64,000 nt of DNA from assembly GCA_000002435.2 (NCBI GenBank), contig CM018792.1; one strand, given 5' to 3'. The notes beneath the pieces were generated by a model. The model saw only the letters and a program-made list of their open reading frames with translations, was not told the DNA's origin and ran no database searches. A program made the translations under genes and the position numbers. Below are positions 794 through 20,953 of the stretch, piece after piece (positions within the stretch are counted from its first letter, which is position 1; each line of letters starts with the position of its first letter). This DNA is from Giardia intestinalis (Eukaryota).

Positions 794-3331
794 TTACCTC
801 CCTCCTGCTCGTCCAGATGCGCCACGCTTCTTTAGGAGCCGTGCTCTTGCTGCGTCCAGGTCTTTGTAACTATGTTGATCAACTTCCAACATATGTTGAA
901 CTTTATTGGCGGCGCGCTCTCGTCCTGTTTTAAGCTTTAGCTTTTGTTCTGTTCGGAGAGCTGCTTTCCGTCTGATTTCTCTCCGAGCACTCCGCTCCTC
1001 GTCTCGTTTCTGCTTTTTGATACGCTTCTCTTCTACACGGGCGCGCTCGCGGGCCTTGTTGGGATCCATACTCTTTCCTGGGCAAAAGTCAACCATATAC
1101 ATAGGTTCGTTTGCTTTGATCTCAGGAAGCCTATCATCTATCCAACTTAGACTCTGCTCTTTTCTTTCAGACGACAGCGTCTCAACCAGCAAATTAAGAG
1201 ACCACTGAATCGAGAATTGTGTACCAGGGGTGCTATAACTTTCTGCAGGCACTAAGTGAGATTGGAGCTCCTTGCAAATTGGCAATAGAAGTGAGTACTG
1301 TGAGGATAGGTCGTACTTCTTTGCGATCTTAAGTTGTAAGAAACATGCGTTGAGAACTGTTGAGAACCCTGCTAATATATTTCCCAGGGTGAAAGTCAGA
1401 TCGTCCTGGAATAGAGACGGTAGCAACTCAATCTTGTGTTCTGTTGGTACACTTAGGACTATGTACGGCGCAGTAATAGATTGAAAAACCTTCTTAGGTG
1501 TGTCTGTGATGGCAACGGAGTGTGCAAATAACTTGGAATATACACGGAGTATACACGCGAGGCCTCGAGACACAGATGGAATATGAAGTTGAGTTGCATT
1601 ACTTAGCATGAGGGTGGTCAGAACGAGAGCCTGCAAGAAAAGAGTCTCTTGATATATTGTACAGAGCATGCAGCTATTCATATTAATTAGTGCATCCTCT
1701 GTTGTCAAAAGAATCTGTTCAAGGCGCAAACACAGACCTTGAATTGGAGCGTCGTTGGCCAAAAACATAGCGGTATAGAGAGGCTGTTCCTCAAACACGC
1801 GCATATTAGTGAGTGCAAACTCATCTGGGGATAACGTATACCAAGTTCCTTGTGGAAAAACAATGGCCATTAAATTAGAAAGCATAACACCTCCAAATAT
1901 TGCACGACCATGTAGAGAAAGAAACCCTTTTGGCTGCTCATCACAGGCCTCTGTTTTTTGACTGGCTATAGATGCAGTGGAAAAAAGCACAGTGTCAAGA
2001 CCTTCTATTCTTTTCTTCTTATTAGAGCATTTGCTTTTTAAGGCCTCCTGATTGTGTAGAGAGATCCTCATAAAATTCACAGCCTGGACCGCTTTGTGAT
2101 ACGTTAAGATAAGCTTTTGATAGGCAGACATCATGTAATGTGGAATTTCACTGGTTATATGTCGTAGTCCTCGAGCCTGAGCGTCAATGCGAACTGGATC
2201 TAGTTCAGGCGCGTCATAGATGAGGTACATGAAGCGAGTGGTGCAGAAAGATCCCAATCTCTCCATTTCGGGACGATTAGATCTTTCCAAGAGCGTAGAG
2301 TTGGACTTAATGAGCCTGTCTAGGACCAGTATCTCCTCAATCGATTGAACAGAGTCCAACATTGCCTGGAACTCATCCATAGTACTTGGAACTGGCAACG
2401 AGAATGACAGCTTTTCGAAATATGTGGGCTGAACTTCCCGGCAGAGAAAATGAGGCAACTGATGCTCTCTAGTATCATCTTCCTCACTGTGCTCATTGCC
2501 TTCTGTGCCACTTTGCGTATCAGATTCTTCAGGAGTATCAGATGAAAAATTATCTCCTAAGTTGAAATCTCCGTTAAGGCACTCTGGATCATTACTGGTA
2601 ATATTGGTGGATTGCTGGTGGTCAAGTTTAGGACGCATAACTGGAGCTGTGCTCCTGTCTCTATCCATTTTCTCCAGTGTTTCAGCACACGCTCTTACTG
2701 CGTCGGCTAAATTAGTAGCCCCACGTGACGCATGGACGCGGACTCCATCTAAAGGTTGAAACTCTGCAACAATGGACTGGGATTCCAGACGAGTCTCTTT
2801 CGGCAACAGTCGAGACACTGTCCCATAAGCTCTGTCGAGCTGTTGTACGGCTTCTGAAACATCTCTATTAATACGCTTATGCTCTTCTCGGTAGGCTTTT
2901 GCTTTAGCACGGACCTCGGCGTAAACATCTCTAGCACGCTGCCTCATTTCCCGCTCATAAAAAATCCGCTCATCTGGCCGCGTATTATCTGGAAAATCGA
3001 ATTTCTGTGGTGTCTGATTAATACTGTGTCGTATGAGTTCGCTACGTTGATAGGAATAGCCCTTTTCTCCTTGCTTCGGAACAATGCGCTCATCATTTAT
3101 TTCCGCTATTACGTGAGCATTGTTACCCGCAGAACCAAGTGGTTTTTTGATTGCCTCGGTAATGGGCTTTGCACAAGTGTGTCTATATTTATGCTCCCCT
3201 TTGTTGAGGACTTGACGGCGTGTATTCACCTTAATATGATCAAATGGGTTCAGCTTTCCGTCTTCTACACCCATTTTCCGCTTCACTATGTCCAGTTTTG
3301 CTTGTAACTTAAGGTGGGTCGGTTTCCCCAT
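794..3331 (-). CDS. Nop14-like nucleolar (SSU processome) protein
   Basis: The track ORF 794..3604 starts at a GTG inside the GC-rich inverted repeat. The first ATG with a Giardia-type AT-rich initiator (ttaaaataaatataATGggg) is at 3331. The N-terminus, GKLNPFDHIKVNTRRQVLNKG, resembles the NPFEVKVNRQKF signature of Nop14. The C-terminal tail is long and K/R-rich. Family assignment is from memory of the motif, not a search. Confidence 0.55.
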   Translation of the reverse strand: MGKPTHLKLQAKLDIVKRKMGVEDGKLNPFDHIKVNTRRQVLNKGEHKYRHTCAKPITEAIKKPLGSAGNNAHVIAEINDERIVPKQGEKGYSYQRSELIRHSINQTPQKFDFPDNTRPDERIFYEREMRQRARDVYAEVRAKAKAYREEHKRINRDVSEAVQQLDRAYGTVSRLLPKETRLESQSIVAEFQPLDGVRVHASRGATNLADAVRACAETLEKMDRDRSTAPVMRPKLDHQQSTNITSNDPECLNGDFNLGDNFSSDTPEESDTQSGTEGNEHSEEDDTREHQLPHFLCREVQPTYFEKLSFSLPVPSTMDEFQAMLDSVQSIEEILVLDRLIKSNSTLLERSNRPEMERLGSFCTTRFMYLIYDAPELDPVRIDAQARGLRHITSEIPHYMMSAYQKLILTYHKAVQAVNFMRISLHNQEALKSKCSNKKKRIEGLDTVLFSTASIASQKTEACDEQPKGFLSLHGRAIFGGVMLSNLMAIVFPQGTWYTLSPDEFALTNMRVFEEQPLYTAMFLANDAPIQGLCLRLEQILLTTEDALINMNSCMLCTIYQETLFLQALVLTTLMLSNATQLHIPSVSRGLACILRVYSKLFAHSVAITDTPKKVFQSITAPYIVLSVPTEHKIELLPSLFQDDLTFTLGNILAGFSTVLNACFLQLKIAKKYDLSSQYSLLLPICKELQSHLVPAESYSTPGTQFSIQWSLNLLVETLSSERKEQSLSWIDDRLPEIKANEPMYMVDFCPGKSMDPNKARERARVEEKRIKKQKRDEERSARREIRRKAALRTEQKLKLKTGRERAANKVQHMLEVDQHSYKDLDAARARLLKKRGASGRAGGR

Positions 3332-4099
3332 TATATTTATTTTAAGAAGAGATTTACTCCGTGTTAACAGACGAGCTTGCCACCCGCTGCCCGAGCAGGC
3401 CCGCTGGGGCCTCTCCCCCGCCCTGCGCGGTTGACCCCGAGAGCCTGGAGGCCGCCCGATTCTGGGGAGGGGAGGGGTGTCGCGCCTCCTCGCTCTGAGC
3501 GTCGTGACCTTGCTCTTGCGACACCGTCTGGGCTTCTCCTTTCTCTCACTCAGCCCCCTTGGGGCCAACTTCTGTATGGAGTGGAAAGCAGTGATCTTGG
3601 CCACGTAGCCTAGGGCCTTGGTACTCTATGACGAAGATTGCATACGCCATGAACCTCGGGATGGCCCGAAGCTCACCGGATACTTTCTTGTCATCTCGTG
3701 GAGCGGGTGTCCGTCCCACTATCAAGGGTGTGCTCCCCGTATGCCTCTATCTTGGAGTTAGAGTACGCACTCATGGATGCCGGCGGACAGCTCCCATGCG
3801 TTGGTGCCGAGGAAGAGGTCCAGCCCTGGTTTGCCTTCCCGCTCGACCCGTCCTTCTGCTCATGGACCACAGCGCGCCTCTTGTGCAGTGCTAGGAGACG
3901 CATACCGACAGACATTGCGCCTTGCCACGTCACTGGCCGGATCTTCCTGCTCGCGGTTGGCATGCGGCTCCTCGTCTGTCTGAACAAGGCAGTGGGGGTT
4001 GGAGTGGCAGAACTAGAGCGTGTTTGCCAGAGGCGCTAGTCTGCCGGCTAGAGGCGGAGTCGAGCGATGCCTGCCCAGAGATGCTCGCTCGGCTGCGAG

Positions 4100-5720
4100 G
4101 AGCACTGCAGGGGGTTCCACGAGCGCGGGAAGGCTCCCTCCCCTAGAAGCCCCGAGGGCCCTCGCGTCCCCGAGTTCAGTCTCCAGGGGCTTTGCGGGCA
4201 TATGCGACGATCTGGGCGCAAGAGCCCTGGGTGGTCTCGAACTCCGGACGCACGCTTTCACCAGGGTTTCGCACCCGAGCGTCCTCAGATACCACCGGGT
4301 AATCAGAACGAGCTGCTTTGTCTACACAACCATGGACCGCGGCCACAGAAGTCTAGGACAACTCCTCCTTGAGCACATGCAGGCCGACGAGCCGGTCGCT
4401 GAGGGCCTGGTGTTGTCCATCATGGAGCAGCTTTCTACCGGGCTTACCTACCTCCATGACGTCTGCTGGGAGGACGCCAGCGGAGCGCCCTGCCAGGGAA
4501 TCGTCCACTAGAGCCTCACGCCCGCCGACGCCCTCATTAGACAGGACGAACAGCGCGTCGTGCTCGCAGACTTCGCGTCCACAGAAACGCTCTGCACAGT
4601 GGCAGTGCGGAGGCAGAGGGCCCCGCGTACACGGATCCTGAAGCCCTCAGATGGCGCGGCCTCCGATCTCTGGGCCCTTGGTGCTATCGCATGCGAGCCT
4701 GCCACTTTGAAGGGGCCGAGCTTCCTGGACGGGTAAGACGCAAAGGCCCCTTTGTCGCCGGATGGAAGCCGAATCTGGGCCTTGTTGTGAAGGATCTCGT
4801 GTGGGATGTCCTCGGGAGGGTCTTTGCCTCAGACCCCGAGTGGTGACCAACAGCCACCAAGCTCGCCAGCCTGCTTCTGCGTGCGGGACGTCTGCTGTGG
4901 GCCCGGATCTCCAGGCCGGCGAGTTGGCAAGCACGGGCGAGTCTCTGCGGCCAGTGCCGAGTCTGTCCTTTCGAGGCAGGGCCCGAAGATGCCGCTCAGC
5001 ATATCAGAGGCATTGGCGCATCCATCGGGCCGTTCCACCAAAGGGCGGGAGCAGCACACTGCAGACGGGCACGGGGCTTCCATCGAATCGACCGACCAGG
5101 TTGCAGCGAGCGGCACGAGGTCCCTATCCTTCCGGGTCCCTGCGAAGGACTCCTCGTGGACCCGGCTGATGCGCGCTGCCGTTACTGGAGATCTCAAGAC
5201 GGCACAGAAGCACCTTGGTGAAAAGGACAAGAAGAACGAGGCGGCGACGCGGTGTACACTCCTGCCGTCAAGGCCGGACAGGGGCCGATGCTGGAGCTCC
5301 TTGACCTTACGGATAAGGCCGGGTCACGGCGCTCATGAGGGCTGCGGACAGAGGAGACGCAGAGGCAGTGAGGCTTCTGGTGAAGCACGAGGACGGCATG
5401 AGGGATGACGATGATTGACGGCGCTCATGATAGCAGCACGGTATCGCCATCCGGAATGCGTTAAGCTTGCTAGAGAGGGAAGCATGTATGACAGGCATAA
5501 GAGGCGCGACTGCTCTTGTGCATGCGGCGGCCAACGGCAGTGCCTTGTGCATACCCTTCCTCTTGGAGAAGGAGGCATGTGTGCAGGACGCCAGTGGCTG
5601 GTCTGCTCTCGCGTGGGCAACATATCTAGATAAGCCAGAGTGTGCGAAGCTTCTTATGGGGGAGGAGGACATAGAAATCACCCCCATAGCTGGAGGGTAT
5701 GCCGACGATGGCAACAATGG
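4100..5720 (+). pseudogene. NEK-family protein kinase / ankyrin-repeat pseudogene (left-arm copy), GC-rich
   Basis: Kinase subdomains are readable: HPSVLRYH, LTYLHD..GIVH*SLTPADALIRQDEQRVVLADFAS (an in-frame TAG sits where HRD would be), and SDLWALGAIACE. Ankyrin repeats follow (TRLMRAAVTGDLKTAQKHL, TALMIAARYRHPECVKL, GATALVHAAANGSALCIPFLL, SGWSALAWATYLDKPECAKLL). They are spread over three frames with stops. The coordinates are approximate. Confidence 0.7.
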
Positions 5721-8287
5721 CAAGACCGGTGGCGACTATTGTCGACTATGACGACTATGATTACTCGACTCCTATGACCACGATTATCATGCTCCTGACG
5801 ATCATGACGTTTACGATTGCTACGGTTACTAGTATTCTGATAACTATGATTTTCATAATCCTTTTGAATGCGATTCCTTATGTGGCGCCACAGCTCTTGA
5901 GCTAGAGGATGGATCATCGAGGGATAGTGGAGGTTCTTTCAACGCGACTGCAGGGTACTAACGGGCTTCTCTACAGGCACACCTTTATACAACTGCCAAT
6001 CTGTTTGCAGCAGTAAAGCTGCGTCACCGCAGTGGCCTAGGGGCTGCTCGATCTATAATTCCGCAAGGGGCAGGCTGATAAAGCAAAACTCTGCGGCCTA
6101 ATTTGTGCCCTGTACAGCCAGCAAGCAAATCCTCTGGACCGCCAGCAGAGCTGCTCGTTCAGCGGAGCGCCGTCTCGTAGGGAGAAGCGGGACGTCACTG
6201 TCAGGCCCAAGCGAGAGTGCCGGCGCCATGCGAACAGTCTCCGGTCCCTGGAGGCCGCCCCGGGTCACCGAAGGCAGGGTATCCTATTGCACAGTGCAGG
6301 CGCGTAGCAGCTAACAGAACCGGCGCAAGTGGCGGCCGAGCGGTGGCTTTTGCGCCTCTCCGAAGTGGGGAGACAGTGTCCAGAAGGCGCGAGGTTCCCG
6401 CGATTTGTCTGGAGCCAGCCGGGAGCGTCACAGAAAAAGCATCTTGAGGGCTCCCTAGGTGCAGTGGCAAAGGGACGTCCGCTGCTTCTTCGCCAGCGGC
6501 TTGCCCGGTGGACCACAGGGCCTCCTAGGCCGCCAAGCGCGAACACAGCTGCGATGAGTGGCTACTGTACGCCCTTGTGACACAGAGTGGACGTGCAGGA
6601 TGCCAGCGACGTGCTGAGGAAGGCTTTATTACCCTCCTGCTGTCTGTGCACCTGCTCCTGGTAAGGATGCTGAGCCCATGCTTACAAGCCACGGCCCCTT
6701 TGAGAGTGGCCAAAGCCGGTGCTCGAGCAGAGATAGATGGCTGCCTCGCAGATCTCGAATCGCTGCGCATGCCGGTCCAGAGAGACACCGATCAGCCCGT
6801 CACTAGGGATGAGGATCCAGGCATGAGAATCGCCAGCCTCCCGCGCCTCGGATGGACCCAGGCGATGGTGGTACGGGGCTAAGGGTCCTGCTACATCCGG
6901 GCAGACCAGGCATTGCCTCTGAACATGACATCAGGTCAGGGCCCTGTCGCGGACAGAGGGGCGAGGCTAGAAGCCAGCCGAGGCGGAGCAGCTGCATAGA
7001 CGGGAGCGCAGGTTATTATGGCAGCAGACTTCCACAGACGAGGGAGCCCGCGCTCTACTCCAGGATGAAACAGCGACGCCCCAGAGTGCGGCCCCGAACC
7101 ATGCTGCACCCCTCCTTTTGTGGCGCGGGAAGACTGCATGCACTTCAACCACGATGCATCCGGCCTTGAACACTGTGCGGAAAGACAGGCGGCCAGTGCG
7201 ATTCATGCGACGCAAGGAAGATGCCTCACCTTCTGATGCCCTACAATGCGGGGAACATAGCCCCCTGCGCACGGGCTGTCTGCTTAAGGACGGCAAGCAC
7301 ATGGAACCAGGCATGAACGGAACCGGGTCTTGATAGCGGCACGGCTGTCTTCAAGGGAAGGGTGATCTCTTGTCTCTTTAAGCAAGACGTGCTGGATCGC
7401 ACAAGCTTACGATTGGGTGAGGAAGGCTTCTGCATGCAACTCTCTGGCATGACCTAGCTGCAAACAGGCGGCAGCGAAGAGCGGACAGCGGGCTCCAGTC
7501 GTGCGGAAGGAGGATGCACCTGCCTGAGGCTACACGCAGTCATCAGGCGGGGCGTTCTCTGCAGAGGTTACGTGCTATGCAGGGTCGTGTCAAACCGAAG
7601 GACCACTCTTAGATGAGCCAGACCAAGGTGCCCCCATCCGCGCGAGACAGGCCTGTCAGATATATGGCATGCCTGCGAAAGTGAGCGCCGACAGGCAGGG
7701 GCCCGGGTAGACCTGGCGTCCTGGCCCAGAGAGTGAACGAGGACGGCCCGCGATACTTGTCCAGCCGAAGTATGAACGCTATGATGCCCCGGGTTGGACA
7801 AGCAACTCTTAGCGCCCCCCCTGAGAGGCTGCAGAGGACGGGCTTCTGGATGGAGGGACGACCCCAGCCAGGCAGACGTGATCACAGAAGAAGGGGCGCT
7901 GGAACCCGGAACAGTGGCTGACGACTGCGTGTCTGCGCGATGCAGTGCCCACTACTGTCAGTCGGCACACGGCGGTCGGCAGGACGCAGAGCTGCAGAGT
8001 GCTGGAGGCGCCGAGCGAGGCCAGTCTCGCTCATGGGACAGAGGCTGCCTGAGCCCCGCAGTCCTGCGAGCCTCTGGACGGTGGCAACAAGAGACCTTTC
8101 ATGGTACGCATCTGCCTGGATGGCGGCGTGATCCCAGAGCCGGCATCGTACCACTTCACGAGCATCACGATCGCTGTGTCCCCCACGATGGTCACTCGGG
8201 CAGTAGTCAGGTGCAGGGCATGGCGGCTCTTCCCTGTCCCCCAGCAGGACCTCGTAAGAGTAGAGTAGATTGTATAACGATGGACGC

Positions 8288-8302
8288 GTTTACTATCTAA
8301 GT
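8288..8302 (-). terminator. VSP-type extended polyadenylation signal (ACTTAGATAGTAAAC)
   Basis: The motif starts at the A of the TGA stop. It matches the conserved ACTYAGRTAGTRAAY element found 3' of Giardia VSP genes (established knowledge). Confidence 0.75.
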
Positions 8303-10524
8303 CACGCCTTGCCCCTACATATGAACCACCAGCAGAGGAAGCCCACGAGGCCCCCAACGACGACGATGACTGCGACGGAGATGCCCGCGATGGCCCCCGT
8401 GGAGAGCCCGCTCTTATTCGTGCTTCCGCCAGTATTGTCGCCGGTATTATCATCCGTTTCGAAACATATGAACTTGCCGTTAACAGGTGTCGCGCACTGC
8501 CTGCATCCAGCCAGCCCCTCGGAGCACTTTCTGCACGGCCCATTACTACTACTCTCCTTGTAATATCCAGGAGTACATACCTTGCATGTAGTAGCATCGG
8601 CTTCGCAGGTGTAGCAACTTTCGTGGCATTTCGTGCAGGCACTGCCGACCTTCACATATCCGTCCATGCACCTAGAACAGTCCCTAGTGGTGGTGCACTC
8701 AGCGCACCCAGTGTAGCAAGCCACAAGGCTCTCGCCTGTCAGGCTAAATCCTTCTTCCGGAGTCTTGCAGGTTCCGCCTGTACTCTGCGCACTCAAGCAC
8801 ACTGTCGACCCCGGAAGCTGGCTGGTGGAGTAGCAGCCGCCGTTCATCTTGAAGAAGCCGTCTGCGCAGACATTGCACACGCCACCAGTAATGCTTCCAT
8901 CTTTGCACTTATCTGTGCGACTGGTTTTAACAGCACAGACGCCGTTCTGGGGATACTCGTTGTTTTGACTACAGACAGAGCAGTATTTTGTCCCCTCAAC
9001 AGTCAGACCGCACTCCCTGCACTTGCCTGTGCCTGTGCCCGCCGCGCACTCGGCCCCACATGTGCCAGTGTTTCCTGTGGATCCGTAGGTGAGCGCGCTT
9101 CCAGACTTACAGCTTGTGCAATCATTGGCAGTATTTCCGCTACATGTCTTACAGCTGGAATCGCAAGGGGAGCACGCTTCGCCGTAGAAGCCGTCCTTAC
9201 AGAGACCGCACCCGCCATTTTCACTGCACGCGAGACAGTTGGCGACCTCGCACTTCTTGCAGACCCTCTTGTTGCCCTCTGTGCTACTGTAGTAGCCTAG
9301 AATATATTCGCAGTGGTCTATGCACTGGTTTGTTGGCGTCAGATACTTGTTGGACAGACATTCGGTGCAGATCTCTTTGTTTGTTTGTGCACCACTGCAT
9401 GCCTTACAATCCTGAGTACTGCATGGATTTGAAGGGGAATCATTTGGCACGCATTGTGTTTCTTCTTCGTCAAGTTTAAATCCATCATTGCACGTGCAAG
9501 TATTCTCGGTCTTGGCTTCTGAGTTATCAGGGCAGCTACTAATGCACGACTTCTTTCCGAGTCCAAATACCATATTTTCCTTACACGCTGTGCAGGTAAC
9601 GGAGGTGTCACTTTTGGTGCATGTTTTGCAGTTCTCAAACGTTCCTGCCGTGCACGGCTTGCACGTCTTCGGCTCCTCATCGTCGGCGTAGTGGGTGTTT
9701 CCACTCGTGCACGCTTCCTCAGTCACGCACTCGCCTGCCTGATCCTGTGACTGCGCCTTCTTTAGGTACGGCTTGTCCTCATTGCAAGAGGTGCACTTCG
9801 TAGCCTCGGTCTCACAGGTCTTGCATGTCTCAGCGCACTTGGTGCATTTTTTACTGCCTGTTGCATCGACGAAGAAGCCTGCAGTACTCGTGCACTCATG
9901 TTCCGTCACACACGACGTCACGTCGCCGTCCGTCTTAACAATCCTCGCGGTTTGCTGCGCATCAGGGCCGCACGCAGTACACTTAGCAACTCCACTGGCC
10001 TCTACCGTTAATTGTAATCCGTCACAGGCAGTGCACCCATCCACGCCCGTGTACTTCTTATTGCCAGTAAGCGTCACGCCTATCGAATCTCCGCACGAAA
10101 CAACCGAGTCGTGCGCATTATCAGCGCCCGGCGGTAGAAAGTATCCTTCCGTAGCCTGTGTGCACTTACCACCAGCTGCTCCTCCACACATCACATTGCC
10201 AGGCTCAATAGCTTGTTCGTAACACCCGCCCTTGTACATAAAAGTCTGACCAGCGCACTTTGCACAGGTCTCATCAGATGCAGTATTTCCATCGGCAGCT
10301 GTACATTTATCTGTTACATCATCTTTGCCTACACATTTTCCATTGATAGGAACAAATCCTGTGTTACATTGAGAGCAATACAATTTACCACCGATCAGAA
10401 CGTTGCATGCGTTTGCTGCACAATTGGCGTTATTCGCGCAGTGAGCTTCCCGCGCACGTTCTGCTACTTTTTCTGCCCATGCAATCTGGATGGCTAGGCC
10501 CGCGAATATAAAACTGCCGAACAT
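8302..10524 (-). CDS. vsp: Variant-specific surface protein (VSP), 740 aa, copy 1
   Basis: Signal peptide MFGSFIFAGLAIQIAWA. Cysteine-rich with many CxxC motifs and two GGCY motifs. TM helix plus the invariant C-terminus CRGKA. Identical in protein to the ORF at 13767..15989. Confidence 0.95.
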   Translation of the reverse strand: MFGSFIFAGLAIQIAWAEKVAERAREAHCANNANCAANACNVLIGGKLYCSQCNTGFVPINGKCVGKDDVTDKCTAADGNTASDETCAKCAGQTFMYKGGCYEQAIEPGNVMCGGAAGGKCTQATEGYFLPPGADNAHDSVVSCGDSIGVTLTGNKKYTGVDGCTACDGLQLTVEASGVAKCTACGPDAQQTARIVKTDGDVTSCVTEHECTSTAGFFVDATGSKKCTKCAETCKTCETEATKCTSCNEDKPYLKKAQSQDQAGECVTEEACTSGNTHYADDEEPKTCKPCTAGTFENCKTCTKSDTSVTCTACKENMVFGLGKKSCISSCPDNSEAKTENTCTCNDGFKLDEEETQCVPNDSPSNPCSTQDCKACSGAQTNKEICTECLSNKYLTPTNQCIDHCEYILGYYSSTEGNKRVCKKCEVANCLACSENGGCGLCKDGFYGEACSPCDSSCKTCSGNTANDCTSCKSGSALTYGSTGNTGTCGAECAAGTGTGKCRECGLTVEGTKYCSVCSQNNEYPQNGVCAVKTSRTDKCKDGSITGGVCNVCADGFFKMNGGCYSTSQLPGSTVCLSAQSTGGTCKTPEEGFSLTGESLVACYTGCAECTTTRDCSRCMDGYVKVGSACTKCHESCYTCEADATTCKVCTPGYYKESSSNGPCRKCSEGLAGCRQCATPVNGKFICFETDDNTGDNTGGSTNKSGLSTGAIAGISVAVIVVVGGLVGFLCWWFICRGKA

Positions 10525-10590
10525 TAACCAATCTGGTAGATTGATAGGAACAGAATCGCGATATATTCAGCCAATCCGTGTGACTGACAC

Positions 10591-10607
10591 ATGATGATGA
10601 TGATGAT
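10591..10607. repeat. (CAT/ATG)5 trinucleotide microsatellite about 70 nt upstream of the VSP copy 1 ATG
   Basis: atgatgatgatgatgat, read directly. Mirror of 13684-13700. Confidence 0.9.
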
Positions 10608-11449
10608 TTACTCCACCCACCGGTTGCTTCCAGTGGTGTGCTGCTGGGGCCCTCGCCTGCAGGCGCTGTCCGCAAATCTCGCGAGTAAATTCCCGCTCAA
10701 TTTTTGGCGATGTCCGGAGATGAGGGTTGGTCACGGGCCGTAACGATAATCACAGCGGTTGTAAGGAGGAGCTATCTGCATTCCTCGGCTGTTCCGTGGG
10801 CATGCGCACACAACCGGACCTGAAACGAAGGAGAGCCCGCAAGGACCCGATCCACATCATGAACGCAAGATCGTACCTTCGGGCCCCCAGAGAGCAAGCC
10901 GTGAGTCTCTACTTGGGAGACCACTCCAAAGACGCTTGCCCTCTCGGCAGGACACACACGCTGGCTCTGTGGCCTACCGTGCAAGAGTGCCAACAATCAA
11001 CCGAGCACCTGAGAGAAGCAAATGATAACAGACACAGAGTACTAGGTGACGACAAACTGATCATTCCATCCCATATACCGAACCAGACAGCTGCCATGCT
11101 CATCCACCAGGGTGCAGCATGATCGCGAGCATCGAGCAGGCCGGGACTGGGGTAGCGCTCCCCGCTATCAGGGGCCTGAACGCCTTGGTAGGAAACTGCT
11201 AGAAGACTCAAGCAACACAGCAGAGCAGACCCAGAGCAAGGCGGACCCAGACCCCGAGAAGGCGAGACGCCGGATAGCAAACAGGGTGAACAACGCGCTG
11301 AGTTTCGGGGCAGTTGCCAAGGCCCTCCGCGCCCTTGATGACACGCCCACGATAGACAAGCCGGAGAAGGCCGACCGCCCTCAGCGCGCTACACCTGTGC
11401 GTCCCCCCGAAGGCTACGTTGGCCTTGACTACCCTCCATCGATGAGCTC

Positions 11450-13360
11450 GACGGGCTGGAGTGGCAACCGAAGAAGAAATGAGGAAGGCTCTGTTTGAGA
11501 CTCTCAACAAGAAGGCCTCGGGCCGGTCCAGCTCAAGGCGATGAAGCAGAGCGACAGCTTCGTGAAGTACCTCACGCAGGCATACAACGAGCTGACCACC
11601 CACCCCGAGGCGATGCCAGAGGTGATGGCCATGCTCGAGTTCCGGGCGATCCTCATCCCGAAGGAGTCCGACGGATACCGCCCGATCGCGATAGGCGAGA
11701 CGGTGACAAACATCTTCCACCGCGTCCTGCTGAAGGGCTGATCAGGCATGCCAACTACCTCTTGTGCGAACAGATCGCCTTCATGCAGAACGCATACGCG
11801 GTAGGCGTGAGGAGGGCCCACGAGCTCATCAGCAGGACAGGAGCACGCCGTCTCCCTCGACACAAAGAACGCCCTCAACTCGCTCCCGAGGGCGGAGGTC
11901 GTCAGAGCCCTGAACGAGGCGGGCGTCCCGAAGGTCCTGGTCGACTACATCGGGGACTTCCTCGACCTGAGGCACAGCCGGGACGTGAAGTGCGAGGTCT
12001 GCGGCGTCCCCCAGGGCGACCCGCTCAGCATGCTCCTCTTCTGCATGGCCACCGAGCGCCTCCTGAGACGCCTCAGGGAGAGGGGCATCACCTTCCTTGC
12101 CTATGCGGACGACATCGTGGCGTTCCACGACGAGGCCTACCCAGCAGGCGTGATAACACAGCTGGCCATGGGCCTGACGATCAGGAGCGACAATGCAAGT
12201 CCACCATGGCGGGCGAGGAGGTGACCTTCCCCAACCACCCGGTGTCCCCCACTCCTGCCAGTCTCGCGCCGAAGGCCATCGCAGGTGCCGAGACTGCCCT
12301 GAGGAAGATTGAGAACGCCCCCATAACCACCCACCAGAAGCTCATCCTGATGTCACTCTGCGTGGTCCCGATGGTGAACTACGCCCCCCTGGTCGAGATA
12401 ACATCGGATAAGGCGGACTACAAGGAGCTGACAGATATCGCACAAGGCTTCAGCAAGCTAACCAGCAGAAGCTGCGATCGCCTGGTCGACTTCCTGGCGT
12501 ACCAAAGGAGAAGGGCGGCCCGGGCCTGCTCATGCCGGGGTTCTACCACGACGAGCTGCGGAGAGCATGGGCCTCCCTGGACGTCAACAAGGGGACCAGA
12601 GACCCGGTGGAGCTGCCGGTGGAAGGCCAGGCACTGCAAGGGAAGGGGACCTACTCCAACCGCCTCCTCACGCATACACCAGCTTCCGGACAGAGCGGCG
12701 GCGTGCTGACCGAGGAGGAAAGGGCCCTGAAGCAGAGAGATGGCTCGATCATGGGGCAGACAAGAGGCACCTGCCCGGGCTGCCACACGGCAAGGACCCT
12801 CGACCGCGACATGATCGTCACGTGCCTGTACCTCCGCGTCTCAGGGAAGTTCAACGCAGAGCTGGAGGTCAAGACCCACAGCCACCTCAGCGGCCAGAAC
12901 CAGAAGCCCGACATCTGGTTCGTCGACAAGTGCAAGGCGATAGATGTGGGTGTCATCCAGCCCCGCCAGATGGACGCCTACTACAACGAGAAGGTCAAGA
13001 AGTACAGGGACGGGACGCTCCCGATCATCTACGGGACAGACGGATCCCTCCACCCAAGTCCAAGGGGCACCTCGAGGAGCTCCACGTGGACCTCTGTCCG
13101 GGCTGCCTTCGCCATCGCCCACATGGCTGCAAAGGCGAACGAGCACCCGACGAAGCTGATCAGACGGGCCGGGCCGAAAGCCTGGCCACCCAGAGCGACC
13201 GTCTCCTGTCATCCTACTTCTGACAACCGAATGAGTCCATCCCCGGGACCTGTCGACAACGACCGAGAAGGGGCGCAAGACTGGACACACAACCGAGTTG
13301 AATCCCAACCAGAAGAGAAAGCCCCGCTAGCTGCTGCTGATATACATGGACAGTATTGAG
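11450..13360 (+). mobile_element. Degenerate non-LTR (LINE-like) retrotransposon remnant: RT domain with a frameshift and stop, and a REL-endonuclease domain in another frame
   Basis: Track frame 0 carries the RT motifs. RAILIPKESDGYRPIAIGETVTNIFHRVLL covers the IPK..RPI motif (track ORF 11541..11741, which ends in TGA). AVSLDTKNALNSLPR, GVPQGDPLSMLLF and FLAYADDIVAF follow (track ORF 11985..12224). KKASGP upstream lies in a different frame. Track ORF 12532..13359 is in another frame and carries CPGCHTARTLDRDMIVTC (CCHC) plus KPDIWFVDKCKAIDVGV (PD..D/ExK). That is the C-terminal REL-endo architecture of Genie/GilM/GilT/GilD-type Giardia elements (family assignment from established knowledge, no search). 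Local coordinates are approximate to within a few nt. Confidence 0.8.
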
Positions 13361-13683
13361 AATGACAACAAAGACCAGAGCTTCACTCACCGTGAAGGGA
13401 GAGCAAGGAGAGGCACCCTAGTAGACCAGCAAGCCTGCAGGACGGCTTGATCTCTGAAAGAACCGATGTGCACACCCAGTCTGAGCTCACGCCCACGGAA
13501 CAGCCGAGGAATGCAGATAGCTCCTCCCTTCCACTACTGTGGTCTTTGTATTGATACACGACCAACCCTCGTCTCCGGACTAGTCAGGGACTGAGCAAGA
13601 GCTTACCCGTGAGATCTCTGGACCATACCTGCAGGCGAGGGCCCCAGCAGCACACCACTGGAAGCAACCGGTGGGTGGAGTAA

Positions 13684-13700
13684 ATCATCATCATCATCAT
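13684..13700. repeat. (ATC)5 microsatellite upstream of the VSP copy 2 ATG, running into an ATG at 13699
   Basis: atcatcatcatcatcatg. The ATG at 13699 opens a 22-codon uORF. Its TAA stop (13765-13767) overlaps the VSP ATG (13767) as ggtTAATGttc. Confidence 0.9.
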
Positions 13701-13766
13701 GTGTCAGTCACACGGATTGGCTGAATATATCGCGATTCTGTTCCTATCAATCTACCAGATTGGTTA

Positions 13767-15989
13767 ATGTTCGGCAGTTTTATATTCGCGGGCCTAGCCA
13801 TCCAGATTGCATGGGCAGAAAAAGTAGCAGAACGTGCGCGGGAAGCTCACTGCGCGAATAACGCCAATTGTGCAGCAAACGCATGCAACGTTCTGATCGG
13901 TGGTAAATTGTATTGCTCTCAATGTAACACAGGATTTGTTCCTATCAATGGAAAATGTGTAGGCAAAGATGATGTAACAGATAAATGTACAGCTGCCGAT
14001 GGAAATACTGCATCTGATGAGACCTGTGCAAAGTGCGCTGGTCAGACTTTTATGTACAAGGGCGGGTGTTACGAACAAGCTATTGAGCCTGGCAATGTGA
14101 TGTGTGGAGGAGCAGCTGGTGGTAAGTGCACACAGGCTACGGAAGGATACTTTCTACCGCCGGGCGCTGATAATGCGCACGACTCGGTTGTTTCGTGCGG
14201 AGATTCGATAGGCGTGACGCTTACTGGCAATAAGAAGTACACGGGCGTGGATGGGTGCACTGCCTGTGACGGATTACAATTAACGGTAGAGGCCAGTGGA
14301 GTTGCTAAGTGTACTGCGTGCGGCCCTGATGCGCAGCAAACCGCGAGGATTGTTAAGACGGACGGCGACGTGACGTCGTGTGTGACGGAACATGAGTGCA
14401 CGAGTACTGCAGGCTTCTTCGTCGATGCAACAGGCAGTAAAAAATGCACCAAGTGCGCTGAGACATGCAAGACCTGTGAGACCGAGGCTACGAAGTGCAC
14501 CTCTTGCAATGAGGACAAGCCGTACCTAAAGAAGGCGCAGTCACAGGATCAGGCAGGCGAGTGCGTGACTGAGGAAGCGTGCACGAGTGGAAACACCCAC
14601 TACGCCGACGATGAGGAGCCGAAGACGTGCAAGCCGTGCACGGCAGGAACGTTTGAGAACTGCAAAACATGCACCAAAAGTGACACCTCCGTTACCTGCA
14701 CAGCGTGTAAGGAAAATATGGTATTTGGACTCGGAAAGAAGTCGTGCATTAGTAGCTGCCCTGATAACTCAGAAGCCAAGACCGAGAATACTTGCACGTG
14801 CAATGATGGATTTAAACTTGACGAAGAAGAAACACAATGCGTGCCAAATGATTCCCCTTCAAATCCATGCAGTACTCAGGATTGTAAGGCATGCAGTGGT
14901 GCACAAACAAACAAAGAGATCTGCACCGAATGTCTGTCCAACAAGTATCTGACGCCAACAAACCAGTGCATAGACCACTGCGAATATATTCTAGGCTACT
15001 ACAGTAGCACAGAGGGCAACAAGAGGGTCTGCAAGAAGTGCGAGGTCGCCAACTGTCTCGCGTGCAGTGAAAATGGCGGGTGCGGTCTCTGTAAGGACGG
15101 CTTCTACGGCGAAGCGTGCTCCCCTTGCGATTCCAGCTGTAAGACATGTAGCGGAAATACTGCCAATGATTGCACAAGCTGTAAGTCTGGAAGCGCGCTC
15201 ACCTACGGATCCACAGGAAACACTGGCACATGTGGGGCCGAGTGCGCGGCGGGCACAGGCACAGGCAAGTGCAGGGAGTGCGGTCTGACTGTTGAGGGGA
15301 CAAAATACTGCTCTGTCTGTAGTCAAAACAACGAGTATCCCCAGAACGGCGTCTGTGCTGTTAAAACCAGTCGCACAGATAAGTGCAAAGATGGAAGCAT
15401 TACTGGTGGCGTGTGCAATGTCTGCGCAGACGGCTTCTTCAAGATGAACGGCGGCTGCTACTCCACCAGCCAGCTTCCGGGGTCGACAGTGTGCTTGAGT
15501 GCGCAGAGTACAGGCGGAACCTGCAAGACTCCGGAAGAAGGATTTAGCCTGACAGGCGAGAGCCTTGTGGCTTGCTACACTGGGTGCGCTGAGTGCACCA
15601 CCACTAGGGACTGTTCTAGGTGCATGGACGGATATGTGAAGGTCGGCAGTGCCTGCACGAAATGCCACGAAAGTTGCTACACCTGCGAAGCCGATGCTAC
15701 TACATGCAAGGTATGTACTCCTGGATATTACAAGGAGAGTAGTAGTAATGGGCCGTGCAGAAAGTGCTCCGAGGGGCTGGCTGGATGCAGGCAGTGCGCG
15801 ACACCTGTTAACGGCAAGTTCATATGTTTCGAAACGGATGATAATACCGGCGACAATACTGGCGGAAGCACGAATAAGAGCGGGCTCTCCACGGGGGCCA
15901 TCGCGGGCATCTCCGTCGCAGTCATCGTCGTCGTTGGGGGCCTCGTGGGCTTCCTCTGCTGGTGGTTCATATGTAGGGGCAAGGCGTGA
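13767..15989 (+). CDS. vsp: Variant-specific surface protein (VSP), 740 aa, copy 2 (identical to copy 1)
   Basis: Same translation as 8302..10524. ATG at 13767. Ends ...WWFICRGKA. Confidence 0.95.
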   Translation: MFGSFIFAGLAIQIAWAEKVAERAREAHCANNANCAANACNVLIGGKLYCSQCNTGFVPINGKCVGKDDVTDKCTAADGNTASDETCAKCAGQTFMYKGGCYEQAIEPGNVMCGGAAGGKCTQATEGYFLPPGADNAHDSVVSCGDSIGVTLTGNKKYTGVDGCTACDGLQLTVEASGVAKCTACGPDAQQTARIVKTDGDVTSCVTEHECTSTAGFFVDATGSKKCTKCAETCKTCETEATKCTSCNEDKPYLKKAQSQDQAGECVTEEACTSGNTHYADDEEPKTCKPCTAGTFENCKTCTKSDTSVTCTACKENMVFGLGKKSCISSCPDNSEAKTENTCTCNDGFKLDEEETQCVPNDSPSNPCSTQDCKACSGAQTNKEICTECLSNKYLTPTNQCIDHCEYILGYYSSTEGNKRVCKKCEVANCLACSENGGCGLCKDGFYGEACSPCDSSCKTCSGNTANDCTSCKSGSALTYGSTGNTGTCGAECAAGTGTGKCRECGLTVEGTKYCSVCSQNNEYPQNGVCAVKTSRTDKCKDGSITGGVCNVCADGFFKMNGGCYSTSQLPGSTVCLSAQSTGGTCKTPEEGFSLTGESLVACYTGCAECTTTRDCSRCMDGYVKVGSACTKCHESCYTCEADATTCKVCTPGYYKESSSNGPCRKCSEGLAGCRQCATPVNGKFICFETDDNTGDNTGGSTNKSGLSTGAIAGISVAVIVVVGGLVGFLCWWFICRGKA

Positions 15990-16003
15990 CTTAGATAGTA
16001 AAC
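15989..16003 (+). terminator. VSP-type extended polyadenylation signal (ACTTAGATAGTAAAC)
   Basis: tgACTTAGATAGTAAACgcg, read directly after the copy-2 stop codon. Confidence 0.75.
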
Positions 16004-18570
16004 GCGTCCATCGTTATACAATCTACTCTACTCTTACGAGGTCCTGCTGGGGGACAGGGAAGAGCCGCCATGCCCTGCACCTGACTACTGCCCGAGTGAC
16101 CATCGTGGGGGACACAGCGATCGTGATGCTCGTGAAGTGGTACGATGCCGGCTCTGGGATCACGCCGCCATCCAGGCAGATGCGTACCATGAAAGGTCTC
16201 TTGTTGCCACCGTCCAGAGGCTCGCAGGACTGCGGGGCTCAGGCAGCCTCTGTCCCATGAGCGAGACTGGCCTCGCTCGGCGCCTCCAGCACTCTGCAGC
16301 TCTGCGTCCTGCCGACCGCCGTGTGCCGACTGACAGTAGTGGGCACTGCATCGCGCAGACACGCAGTCGTCAGCCACTGTTCCGGGTTCCAGCGCCCCTT
16401 CTTCTGTGATCACGTCTGCCTGGCTGGGGTCGTCCCTCCATCCAGAAGCCCGTCCTCTGCAGCCTCTCAGGGGGGGCGCTAAGAGTTGCTTGTCCAACCC
16501 GGGGCATCATAGCGTTCATACTTCGGCTGGACAAGTATCGCGGGCCGTCCTCGTTCACTCTCTGGGCCAGGACGCCAGGTCTACCCGGGCCCCTGCCTGT
16601 CGGCGCTCACTTTCGCAGGCATGCCATATATCTGACAGGCCTGTCTCGCGCGGATGGGGGCACCTTGGTCTGGCTCATCTAAGAGTGGTCCTTCGGTTTG
16701 ACACGACCCTGCATAGCACGTAACCTCTGCAGAGAACGCCCCGCCTGATGACTGCGTGTAGCCTCAGGCAGGTGCATCCTCCTTCCGCACGACTGGAGCC
16801 CGCTGTCCGCTCTTCGCTGCCGCCTGTTTGCAGCTAGGTCATGCCAGAGAGTTGCATGCAGAAGCCTTCCTCACCCAATCGTAAGCTTGTGCGATCCAGC
16901 ACGTCTTGCTTAAAGAGACAAGAGATCACCCTTCCCTTGAAGACAGCCGTGCCGCTATCAAGACCCGGTTCCGTTCATGCCTGGTTCCATGTGCTTGCCG
17001 TCCTTAAGCAGACAGCCCGTGCGCAGGGGGCTATGTTCCCCGCATTGTAGGGCATCAGAAGGTGAGGCATCTTCCTTGCGTCGCATGAATCGCACTGGCC
17101 GCCTGTCTTTCCGCACAGTGTTCAAGGCCGGATGCATCGTGGTTGAAGTGCATGCAGTCTTCCCGCGCCACAAAAGGAGGGGTGCAGCATGGTTCGGGGC
17201 CGCACTCTGGGGCGTCGCTGTTTCATCCTGGAGTAGAGCGCGGGCTCCCTCGTCTGTGGAAGTCTGCTGCCATAATAACCTGCGCTCCCGTCTATGCAGC
17301 TGCTCCGCCTCGGCTGGCTTCTAGCCTCGCCCCTCTGTCCGCGACAGGGCCCTGACCTGATGTCATGTTCAGAGGCAATGCCTGGTCTGCCCGGATGTAG
17401 CAGGACCCTTAGCCCCGTACCACCATCGCCTGGGTCCATCCGAGGCGCGGGAGGCTGGCGATTCTCATGCCTGGATCCTCATCCCTAGTGACGGGCTGAT
17501 CGGTGTCTCTCTGGACCGGCATGCGCAGCGATTCGAGATCTGCGAGGCAGCCATCTATCTCTGCTCGAGCACCGGCTTTGGCCACTCTCAAAGGGGCCGT
17601 GGCTTGTAAGCATGGGCTCAGCATCCTTACCAGGAGCAGGTGCACAGACAGCAGGAGGGTAATAAAGCCTTCCTCAGCACGTCGCTGGCATCCTGCACGT
17701 CCACTCTGTGTCACAAGGGCGTACAGTAGCCACTCATCGCAGCTGTGTTCGCGCTTGGCGGCCTAGGAGGCCCTGTGGTCCACCGGGCAAGCCGCTGGCG
17801 AAGAAGCAGCGGACGTCCCTTTGCCACTGCACCTAGGGAGCCCTCAAGATGCTTTTTCTGTGACGCTCCCGGCTGGCTCCAGACAAATCGCGGGAACCTC
17901 GCGCCTTCTGGACACTGTCTCCCCACTTCGGAGAGGCGCAAAAGCCACCGCTCGGCCGCCACTTGCGCCGGTTCTGTTAGCTGCTACGCGCCTGCACTGT
18001 GCAATAGGATACCCTGCCTTCGGTGACCCGGGGCGGCCTCCAGGGACCGGAGACTGTTCGCATGGCGCCGGCACTCTCGCTTGGGCCTGACAGTGACGTC
18101 CCGCTTCTCCCTACGAGACGGCGCTCCGCTGAACGAGCAGCTCTGCTGGCGGTCCAGAGGATTTGCTTGCTGGCTGTACAGGGCACAAATTAGGCCGCAG
18201 AGTTTTGCTTTATCAGCCTGCCCCTTGCGGAATTATAGATCGAGCAGCCCCTAGGCCACTGCGGTGACGCAGCTTTACTGCTGCAAACAGATTGGCAGTT
18301 GTATAAAGGTGTGCCTGTAGAGAAGCCCGTTAGTACCCTGCAGTCGCGTTGAAAGAACCTCCACTATCCCTCGATGATCCATCCTCTAGCTCAAGAGCTG
18401 TGGCGCCACATAAGGAATCGCATTCAAAAGGATTATGAAAATCATAGTTATCAGAATACTAGTAACCGTAGCAATCGTAAACGTCATGATCGTCAGGAGC
18501 ATGATAATCGTGGTCATAGGAGTCGAGTAATCATAGTCGTCATAGTCGACAATAGTCGCCACCGGTCTTG

Positions 18571-20191
18571 CCATTGTTGCCATCGTCGGCATACCCTCCA
18601 GCTATGGGGGTGATTTCTATGTCCTCCTCCCCCATAAGAAGCTTCGCACACTCTGGCTTATCTAGATATGTTGCCCACGCGAGAGCAGACCAGCCACTGG
18701 CGTCCTGCACACATGCCTCCTTCTCCAAGAGGAAGGGTATGCACAAGGCACTGCCGTTGGCCGCCGCATGCACAAGAGCAGTCGCGCCTCTTATGCCTGT
18801 CATACATGCTTCCCTCTCTAGCAAGCTTAACGCATTCCGGATGGCGATACCGTGCTGCTATCATGAGCGCCGTCAATCATCGTCATCCCTCATGCCGTCC
18901 TCGTGCTTCACCAGAAGCCTCACTGCCTCTGCGTCTCCTCTGTCCGCAGCCCTCATGAGCGCCGTGACCCGGCCTTATCCGTAAGGTCAAGGAGCTCCAG
19001 CATCGGCCCCTGTCCGGCCTTGACGGCAGGAGTGTACACCGCGTCGCCGCCTCGTTCTTCTTGTCCTTTTCACCAAGGTGCTTCTGTGCCGTCTTGAGAT
19101 CTCCAGTAACGGCAGCGCGCATCAGCCGGGTCCACGAGGAGTCCTTCGCAGGGACCCGGAAGGATAGGGACCTCGTGCCGCTCGCTGCAACCTGGTCGGT
19201 CGATTCGATGGAAGCCCCGTGCCCGTCTGCAGTGTGCTGCTCCCGCCCTTTGGTGGAACGGCCCGATGGATGCGCCAATGCCTCTGATATGCTGAGCGGC
19301 ATCTTCGGGCCCTGCCTCGAAAGGACAGACTCGGCACTGGCCGCAGAGACTCGCCCGTGCTTGCCAACTCGCCGGCCTGGAGATCCGGGCCCACAGCAGA
19401 CGTCCCGCACGCAGAAGCAGGCTGGCGAGCTTGGTGGCTGTTGGTCACCACTCGGGGTCTGAGGCAAAGACCCTCCCGAGGACATCCCACACGAGATCCT
19501 TCACAACAAGGCCCAGATTCGGCTTCCATCCGGCGACAAAGGGGCCTTTGCGTCTTACCCGTCCAGGAAGCTCGGCCCCTTCAAAGTGGCAGGCTCGCAT
19601 GCGATAGCACCAAGGGCCCAGAGATCGGAGGCCGCGCCATCTGAGGGCTTCAGGATCCGTGTACGCGGGGCCCTCTGCCTCCGCACTGCCACTGTGCAGA
19701 GCGTTTCTGTGGACGCGAAGTCTGCGAGCACGACGCGCTGTTCGTCCTGTCTAATGAGGGCGTCGGCGGGCGTGAGGCTCTAGTGGACGATTCCCTGGCA
19801 GGGCGCTCCGCTGGCGTCCTCCCAGCAGACGTCATGGAGGTAGGTAAGCCCGGTAGAAAGCTGCTCCATGATGGACAACACCAGGCCCTCAGCGACCGGC
19901 TCGTCGGCCTGCATGTGCTCAAGGAGGAGTTGTCCTAGACTTCTGTGGCCGCGGTCCATGGTTGTGTAGACAAAGCAGCTCGTTCTGATTACCCGGTGGT
20001 ATCTGAGGACGCTCGGGTGCGAAACCCTGGTGAAAGCGTGCGTCCGGAGTTCGAGACCACCCAGGGCTCTTGCGCCCAGATCGTCGCATATGCCCGCAAA
20101 GCCCCTGGAGACTGAACTCGGGGACGCGAGGGCCCTCGGGGCTTCTAGGGGAGGGAGCCTTCCCGCGCTCGTGGAACCCCCTGCAGTGCTC
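18571..20191 (-). pseudogene. NEK-family kinase / ankyrin-repeat pseudogene (right-arm copy)
   Basis: Exact mirror image of 4100-5720. The mirrored ORFs (18658..18876, 18540..18824, 19780..20271) have identical translations. Confidence 0.7.
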
Positions 20192-20953
20192 CTCGCAGCC
20201 GAGCGAGCATCTCTGGGCAGGCATCGCTCGACTCCGCCTCTAGCCGGCAGACTAGCGCCTCTGGCAAACACGCTCTAGTTCTGCCACTCCAACCCCCACT
20301 GCCTTGTTCAGACAGACGAGGAGCCGCATGCCAACCGCGAGCAGGAAGATCCGGCCAGTGACGTGGCAAGGCGCAATGTCTGTCGGTATGCGTCTCCTAG
20401 CACTGCACAAGAGGCGCGCTGTGGTCCATGAGCAGAAGGACGGGTCGAGCGGGAAGGCAAACCAGGGCTGGACCTCTTCCTCGGCACCAACGCATGGGAG
20501 CTGTCCGCCGGCATCCATGAGTGCGTACTCTAACTCCAAGATAGAGGCATACGGGGAGCACACCCTTGATAGTGGGACGGACACCCGCTCCACGAGATGA
20601 CAAGAAAGTATCCGGTGAGCTTCGGGCCATCCCGAGGTTCATGGCGTATGCAATCTTCGTCATAGAGTACCAAGGCCCTAGGCTACGTGGCCAAGATCAC
20701 TGCTTTCCACTCCATACAGAAGTTGGCCCCAAGGGGGCTGAGTGAGAGAAAGGAGAAGCCCAGACGGTGTCGCAAGAGCAAGGTCACGACGCTCAGAGCG
20801 AGGAGGCGCGACACCCCTCCCCTCCCCAGAATCGGGCGGCCTCCAGGCTCTCGGGGTCAACCGCGCAGGGCGGGGGAGAGGCCCCAGCGGGCCTGCTCGG
20901 GCAGCGGGTGGCAAGCAAATTCTACAAAGATTTACTTCTAAGAACGTAAAGGA

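Follow-up and report, generated by a model that had tools for sequence, protein, structure and literature searches.

The 64,000-nt stretch of Giardia intestinalis DNA analyzed here (contig CM018792.1 of GenBank assembly GCA_000002435.2; hereafter, the window) harbors, at positions 3375-20916, a 17.5-kb palindromic island carrying two identical genes for a variant-specific surface protein (VSP). The locus lies on chromosome 4 of isolate WB, where the duplicated VSP pair is designated GL50803_0050229/d50229. The base-by-base comparison of each position i with position 24291-i revealed that the left arm (3375-10663; 7,289 nt, 58% guanine plus cytosine (GC)) and the right arm (13628-20916) are perfect reverse complements, forming an unbroken complementary run with 0 mismatches and 0 indels; a perfect match of 7.3 kb cannot have arisen by chance. 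The island has a GC content of about 58-60% and is set in sequence of 44% GC between two housekeeping genes, encoding a Nop14-like protein on the left and an insulinase-family (PreP-like) metalloprotease on the right. In the window, just one large inverted repeat was reported by a repeat finder (3375-10699 versus 13592-20916), and no further repeat of at least 40 nt was found elsewhere in the 64 kb.

The two VSP open reading frames (ORFs) are intact and identical, each encoding 740 amino acids; they are located on opposite strands, copy 1 at 8302-10524 on the minus strand (GL50803_0050229 or d50229) and copy 2 at 13767-15989 on the plus strand, and are arranged head to head with 3,242 nt between them. 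Their product matches the Pfam VSP family (PF03302) with an E-value of 1.1e-136 and a score of 456 bits (cut-off 31.4), and contains 88 cysteines (11.9%) and 28 CXXC motifs; toward its C-terminus there is a transmembrane helix, and the last residues form a CRGKA tail. Read from the sequence, the ATG lies in the context TTAATGTT and an AGTAAAC motif is located 9 nt past the stop codon; an initiator-like start and a polyadenylation consensus are known for VSPs (preprint 10.1101/2022.03.07.483299). Each arm contains a complete VSP transcription unit, and the two copies would be equally expressible. The product is 100% identical to a VSP of WB clone C6 (2,761,001-bp contig), and all the other proteins in the collection searched are at most 74% identical to it (the closest relative being P0002, with 74%). 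Since the older WB protein set does not contain any 740-amino-acid match, its best XP_ entry being 56% identical, the pair probably remained unresolved in the WB assembly of 2007/2010. The locus corresponds exactly to a row of Table 2 of Xu et al. 2020 (PMC7000408), where it is one of 19 listed pairs (chromosome 4, 50229/d50229, <- ->, 740 amino acids, 3242 bp, psiRT); the palindromic pair was, hence, already known and catalogued.

The alignment of the window with its own reverse complement disclosed different behaviors of the two arm ends. The outer edges are abrupt, complementarity being at chance level from positions 3374 and 20917 outward. The inner edges are not: inverted homology runs for about 147 nt past 10663 and 13628 at approximately 72% identity and with indels, forming two decayed continuations of the inverted repeat, referred to as the left (10664-10810) and right (13482-13627) inner shoulders. 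In the gapped alignment of the former with the reverse complement of the latter, 109/152 columns are identical (about 72%), which corresponds to a Jukes-Cantor distance of about 0.36, versus 0.08 for the arms between isolates WB and DH. Beyond the shoulders, pairing within the spacer is at chance level.

A preliminary description of this DNA, made from the sequence alone, had anticipated much of this organization. It had proposed indel-free mirror arms whose paired coordinates sum to 24291 and whose nucleotide identity would be close to 100%, and both predictions hold, the identity being complete; the organism (Giardia), the gene family (VSP), and the head-to-head layout that it had recognized are borne out by the ORFs and by Pfam, and its 3.2-kb interval is the 3,242 nt also reported in Table 2 of Xu et al. 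2020. The structure that it outlined is real, but the earlier publication of the pair had escaped it; of the arm limits that it drew, the outer ones are sharp, whereas the inner ones trail into the shoulders. Moreover, the arms do consist of mirrored ORFs, as it had pictured them, but they also hold pseudogenes, and the interval contains a dead retrotransposon that it had missed (both described below).

The junctions of the palindrome were searched for in sequence data other than the reference. In the Illumina-based Logan short-read assemblies, contigs from separate runs cross from the PreP flank into the arm (L002, L010, and L011) and from the Nop14 flank into the arm (L009), with 100% identity to the window. 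Four other contigs (L001 and L003-L005) end exactly 30 nt (k-1) within the arm, one of them being present in at least 20 samples; such stops are the signature of a fork in a de Bruijn graph, i.e., of one sequence with two different neighbors. Both arm-flank junctions, therefore, recur in independent Logan assemblies, and they are also found in isolate DH. In addition, the WB reference is a PacBio assembly with 200x coverage and in agreement with optical maps (Xu et al. 2020; PMC7000408), and a DH contig (L017) joins one end of the spacer to the VSP upstream region; for the arm-spacer junctions of WB, we rely on these two sources. The concern of the preliminary description that the inverted duplication might be an assembly artefact is thus met by independent support at the outer junctions and by the presence of the pair in the PacBio reference, while at the inner junctions the answer comes from the reference and DH. 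Separately, two Logan contigs from different runs and opposite flanks (L009 and L002) both end at arm position 6466 (mirror 17825), through which L010 reads; this stop may reflect an arm or allele variant in some WB sublines, or a k-mer common to another locus.

The genome of isolate DH (assemblage AII) settles, to the extent that its data permit, the choice between recent duplication and conversion. Two DH contigs cover the locus from the two sides: AHGT01000053 (L014) contains the PreP gene followed by 419 nt of the arm, and AHGT01000005 (L017) runs from Nop14 through the whole arm and the VSP gene into the spacer. Both outer junctions are, thus, present in DH and lie at the WB position, within 2 nt. 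When the 419 nt anchored in the flanks were aligned for six sequences, Logan contigs included, the left arm of WB proved identical to the right arm of WB and the left arm of DH to the right arm of DH; the two isolates are set apart by 12 substitutions and one 3-nt indel, all of them being isolate-specific and none arm-specific. Substitutions between the WB and DH arms amount to 7.75% over 5.1 kb, and those between the spacers to a similar 8.5%; the synonymous divergence between the two isolates, pooled over three flanking genes, is about 4.6%.

The VSP gene of DH is a different one. At the position of the WB gene (8302-10524), DH carries a VSP of 747 amino acids (L017:2716-4959) with just 51% amino acid identity to the WB product; its identity is 98.7% with P0011, an unnamed ENA protein, and 80% with the P15 VSP P0014. 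Conservation between the two genes is limited to the signal-peptide/promoter end and the C-terminal tail; the surrounding arm is 89-97% identical. Since both WB arms carry the WB-type VSP and the DH VSP is different, in at least one lineage the replacement of the cassette must have reached the two arms alike.

Three further differences were observed toward the center of the DH locus. About 377 nt without WB counterpart separate the shoulder from the VSP upstream region (L017:2272-2648), and therefore the inner arm end differs structurally between assemblages AI and AII. The DH shoulder (L017:2105-2280, compared with window positions 13470-13640 and 10651-10822) is a mosaic of the left and right WB shoulders, which hints that exchange might occasionally take place there too; it also has an extra insertion of 23 nt. 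Lastly, the DH spacer with its retroelement relic (L017:1-2271, corresponding to 11470-13634) has, relative to the Nop14 and PreP flanks, the orientation opposite to that of WB. This is either the outcome of a flip-flop inversion by crossover between the arms or a path that the assembly took arbitrarily where the arms are identical; the arms probably exceed the read length behind the DH assembly, so that the orientation of the spacer is possibly arbitrary.

In assemblage B (GS) and in the ERR3333380 lineage, whose PreP is 79% identical, no detectable homology to the WB island was found beyond PreP, on contigs that stop 856-907 nt past this gene (L012:11171-12026 and L013:11434-12340). The intergenic site close to PreP may be a recurrent synteny break or a variable region.

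Because the differences between WB and DH follow the isolate and not the arm, we consider it probable that the palindrome is old and that its arms undergo concerted evolution, being homogenized by recurrent intrachromosomal gene conversion from arm to arm. According to this reading of the sequences, the palindrome would have been in place, with both of its outer junctions (within 2 nt), before the divergence of AI and AII; recurrent conversion would copy one arm onto the other, keeping them identical, and it would also have placed the replaced VSP cassette on both arms in at least one lineage. Under independent evolution from the AI/AII split onward, the non-VSP part of the WB arms should show about 380 differences, and 0 are observed; the last complete homogenization would, therefore, fall within about 0.5% of the AI-AII divergence time. 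The shoulders suggest that the inverted repeat might be several times older than the AI/AII split, its outer part alone being still homogenized, and the abrupt fall of identity from 100% to about 72% at the point where they start fits an old repeat that has been homogenized in part. The preliminary description had offered a very recent duplication and continuous conversion as alternatives; both were apt, and DH favors the latter and disfavors the former.

Some points weigh against this reading. The right arm of DH is covered for 419 nt only, so that its full arm identity and a second DH VSP lie beyond that coverage. Short-read and 454 assemblies can merge identical repeats; the anchored 419 nt are close to the length of one 454 read and are, therefore, probably arm-specific. 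As to the center of the palindrome, exact-product look-ups with the VSP (window, P0001), P0002, the 845-amino-acid Nop14, and the spacer ORFs of 404 and 275 amino acids did not retrieve any independent Logan contig across either WB arm-spacer junction. Consensus polishing of a repeat with two copies could also have slightly exaggerated the perfect identity of the WB arms. Finally, gene conversion, like the length of its tracts, is read from the pattern of differences and not observed as a process.

The spacer contains, at 11464-13356 on the plus strand, a frameshifted pseudogene of a reverse transcriptase/endonuclease of the kind without long terminal repeats (non-LTR), referred to as relic A and corresponding to the psiRT of Xu et al. 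2020. The RVT_1 domain is detected with 40.6 bits on one fragment of 79 amino acids, the longest in-frame piece of the reverse transcriptase, and with 65.2 bits (E=8.5e-18) on the stitched frames; the tblastn homology switches among all three plus frames. Its conceptual translation shares 55-76% identity with several Giardia fragments annotated as "Reverse transcriptase/endonuclease" in WB and DH, and only 32% with a P15 reverse transcriptase. After the reverse transcriptase, an endonuclease-like motif (CPGCH...KPDIWF...IDVGV, of the CCHC/PD...D type) was spotted by eye, and there is 63-81% identity with WB proteins named "Reverse transcriptase/endonuclease". Frameshifts and stop codons have inactivated relic A. 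No relatives of it were found in a metagenome scan.

Two dead retrotransposons of Giardia are relevant here, i.e., GilD, reportedly described by Arkhipova and Morrison in 2001 as a dead non-LTR element, and Genie 2, which is said to have been reported by Burke and coworkers in 2002 and to possess short inverted terminal homology (reportedly "up to 172 bp"). Like these elements, relic A is chromosome-internal, frameshifted, and interrupted by stop codons, and it combines a reverse transcriptase with a putative C-terminal restriction-like endonuclease; it likewise has many Giardia copies that are 55-76% alike and short inverted ends. On the basis of this resemblance, it is a putative member of the GilD/Genie 2 family; the relatives found were all unnamed Giardia sequences.

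A second element (relic B) is represented by a C-terminal endonuclease fragment at the outer end of each arm (3618-3882 on the minus strand; mirror 20409-20673 on the plus strand), with its 3' end pointing toward the arm boundary. It was detected by tblastn with amino acids 348-445 of the P15 "Reverse transcriptase" P0130 (E=4e-11, 42-51% identity, one frameshift). The idea that both arm boundaries might represent the 3' ends of one retroelement family was rejected, the nucleotide similarity between relics A and B being not above that of shuffled controls.

Among the alternatives to arm-to-arm conversion, the one that survives best invokes the re-synthesis of whole arms: a break by the spacer would be followed by the fold-back pairing of the shoulders or the arm and by break-induced replication up to the end of homology. 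In this scenario, the retroelement shoulders would represent both the seed of the palindrome and its inner limit. It is unlikely in our opinion, even though it agrees with the drop in identity (100% to about 72%) that takes place at a single base, the very point at which the shoulders start, with the swap of the complete VSP cassette on both WB arms, with the retroelement relics located at the center and at both outer ends, and with the annotation of psiRT in 4/7 head-to-head pairs of Xu et al. 2020. Nevertheless, the tract length lacks direct evidence, the 12 tail-to-tail pairs of the same study have no annotated reverse transcriptase between them, the mosaic DH shoulder resembles the outcome of short-tract exchange, and the 3' ends of relics A and B do not have any sequence in common.

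Taken further, the same anatomy might suggest that inverted VSP pairs in general are a recurrent product of dead retroelements, whose short inverted ends would seed a fold-back event duplicating the neighboring VSP. We regard this as decidedly improbable; it draws only on the anatomy of the locus and on the concerted evolution of its arms. If it were true, the palindrome would keep two antigen copies identical and spread cassette replacements to both of them, transcription across its center would give a long hairpin RNA as a possible substrate of the Dicer/Argonaute pathway, which is reported to control VSP expression, and an observable side effect would be a spacer that flips from one orientation to the other.

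That the WB/AI lineage underwent a single inverted duplication very recently, without ongoing exchange between arms that would simply be too young to have diverged, seems very unlikely. The 0 differences across 7,289 nt are what such an event would predict, the protein collection contains no other protein with at least 90% identity to this VSP, and Adam et al. 2010 (PMC2996952) proposed duplication and transposition, relatively recent, as the source of such pairs. However, the arm/Nop14 and arm/PreP junctions are found, within 2 nt, also in DH; all 13 differences between WB and DH in the 419 nt are common to both arms of each isolate; the decayed shoulders imply an older inverted repeat; and two independent events would need the same two breakpoints. 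Lastly, the possibility that a chimeric or fold-back long read, or a mis-resolved repeat, produced an inverted duplication that does not exist is hardly credible and has been largely refuted: inverted duplications are, indeed, a known long-read artefact, duplicated VSPs in the older assembly have been questioned (preprint 10.1101/2022.03.07.483299), and the inner WB junctions rely on the reference and on DH, but against it stand the junctions of each unique flank with the arm in Illumina-based assemblies of different runs, the contig ending k-1 nt inside the arm in at least 20 samples, both outer junctions of DH, the coverage and optical-map agreement of the PacBio reference, and the vsp1267 pair, which shares the same design and was described before genome sequencing.

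Concerning the remaining content of the arms, the Pfam scan was carried out on the three plus frames, X-masked, and for the minus frames the search was by tblastn alone, using the available proteins. A decayed pseudogene of a NEK-type kinase with ankyrin repeats lies at 4257-5680 on the plus strand (mirror 18611-20034 on the minus strand); its Ank_2 match (51.6 bits) is in a different frame from its Pkinase match, which at 26.8 bits falls short of the cut-off, tblastn links it to the Giardia kinase/ankyrin protein P0055 (E=1.4e-19), and the Logan gene calls include an 87-amino-acid Ank_2 fragment within the arm. The region 5700-8300 (mirror 15991-18591), of about 2.6 kb and about 60% GC, gave no protein, RNA-family, or VSP-fragment match, and an Rfam scan of positions 1-26000 retrieved zero RNA families; a short tandem repeat (three units of 9 nt) occurs within this region at 5733-5760. 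GC-biased conversion as the sole cause of the GC-rich island is not supported, the unconverted spacer being equally GC-rich (about 60%).

The left flanking gene, Nop14-like, is located at 794-3331 on the minus strand (845 amino acids, Pfam Nop14), with its ATG 43 nt outside the left arm; on the right, the PreP-like metalloprotease gene (20954-24355, minus strand; Pfam M16C_assoc and PreP_C) has its stop codon 37 nt outside the right arm. A mechanically called ORF with a GTG start (794-3604, 936 amino acids) enters the arm by 230 nt, and a 936-amino-acid product is found also in the Logan gene calls; the annotated protein has 845 amino acids, and its ATG at 3331 follows an AT-rich initiator. 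The GC-rich arm is poor in stop codons, which makes the longer call an artefact of annotation.

Inverted VSP pairs have been known for some time. Adam et al. 2010 (PMC2996952) reported 14 identical inverted pairs in WB at distances of 2.2-3.8 kb, which they described as "an interesting, but cryptic observation", and the preprint 10.1101/2022.03.07.483299 counted 20 pairs, with retrotransposon remnants between and around them. The locus described here shares with the pairs of Adam et al. 2010 and Xu et al. 2020 and with vsp1267 the identical inverted ORFs, the spacer of 2-4 kb, and the abrupt divergence. In Table 5 of Adam et al. 2010, identity extends for only 141-729 nt beyond the ORFs and the spacer is called non-coding; in this pair, identity extends for 139 nt on the 5' side, which fits the published pairs, and for 4,927 nt beyond the stop codon, pseudogenes included, which is well outside their range. 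A likeness also exists with the palindromes of primate X and Y chromosomes, which, according to two papers (PMC3723533 and PMC8981503), are large inverted repeats with a unique spacer and an arm identity above 99.9%, conserved across lineages, with arms alike within a lineage and diverged between lineages, for which the authors invoke arm-to-arm gene conversion. Compared with these, the Giardia palindrome differs in size (arms of 7.3 kb versus tens of kb to Mb), in its host, a tetraploid and apparently asexual protist, in the antigen gene swapped between lineages, and in the dead retrotransposon occupying its spacer.

The extended arms, their content of pseudogenes and relics, and the cross-isolate evidence are useful details on a known arrangement and not a new kind of system. 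What is added here is the identity across 7.3 kb, pseudogenes included, the presence of retroelement relics at the center and at the outer ends, and a palindrome that would predate the AI/AII split and is yet internally perfect, which argues for concerted evolution. From a practical viewpoint, caution is needed in the 7.3-kb arms, where read mapping, expression counts, and variant calls are ambiguous. Antigenic variation in Giardia, a major parasite of humans, is driven by VSP genes, and this locus bears on the way in which sequences may be homogenized in an organism without known sex and on how a replaced VSP might reach both copies of a pair.

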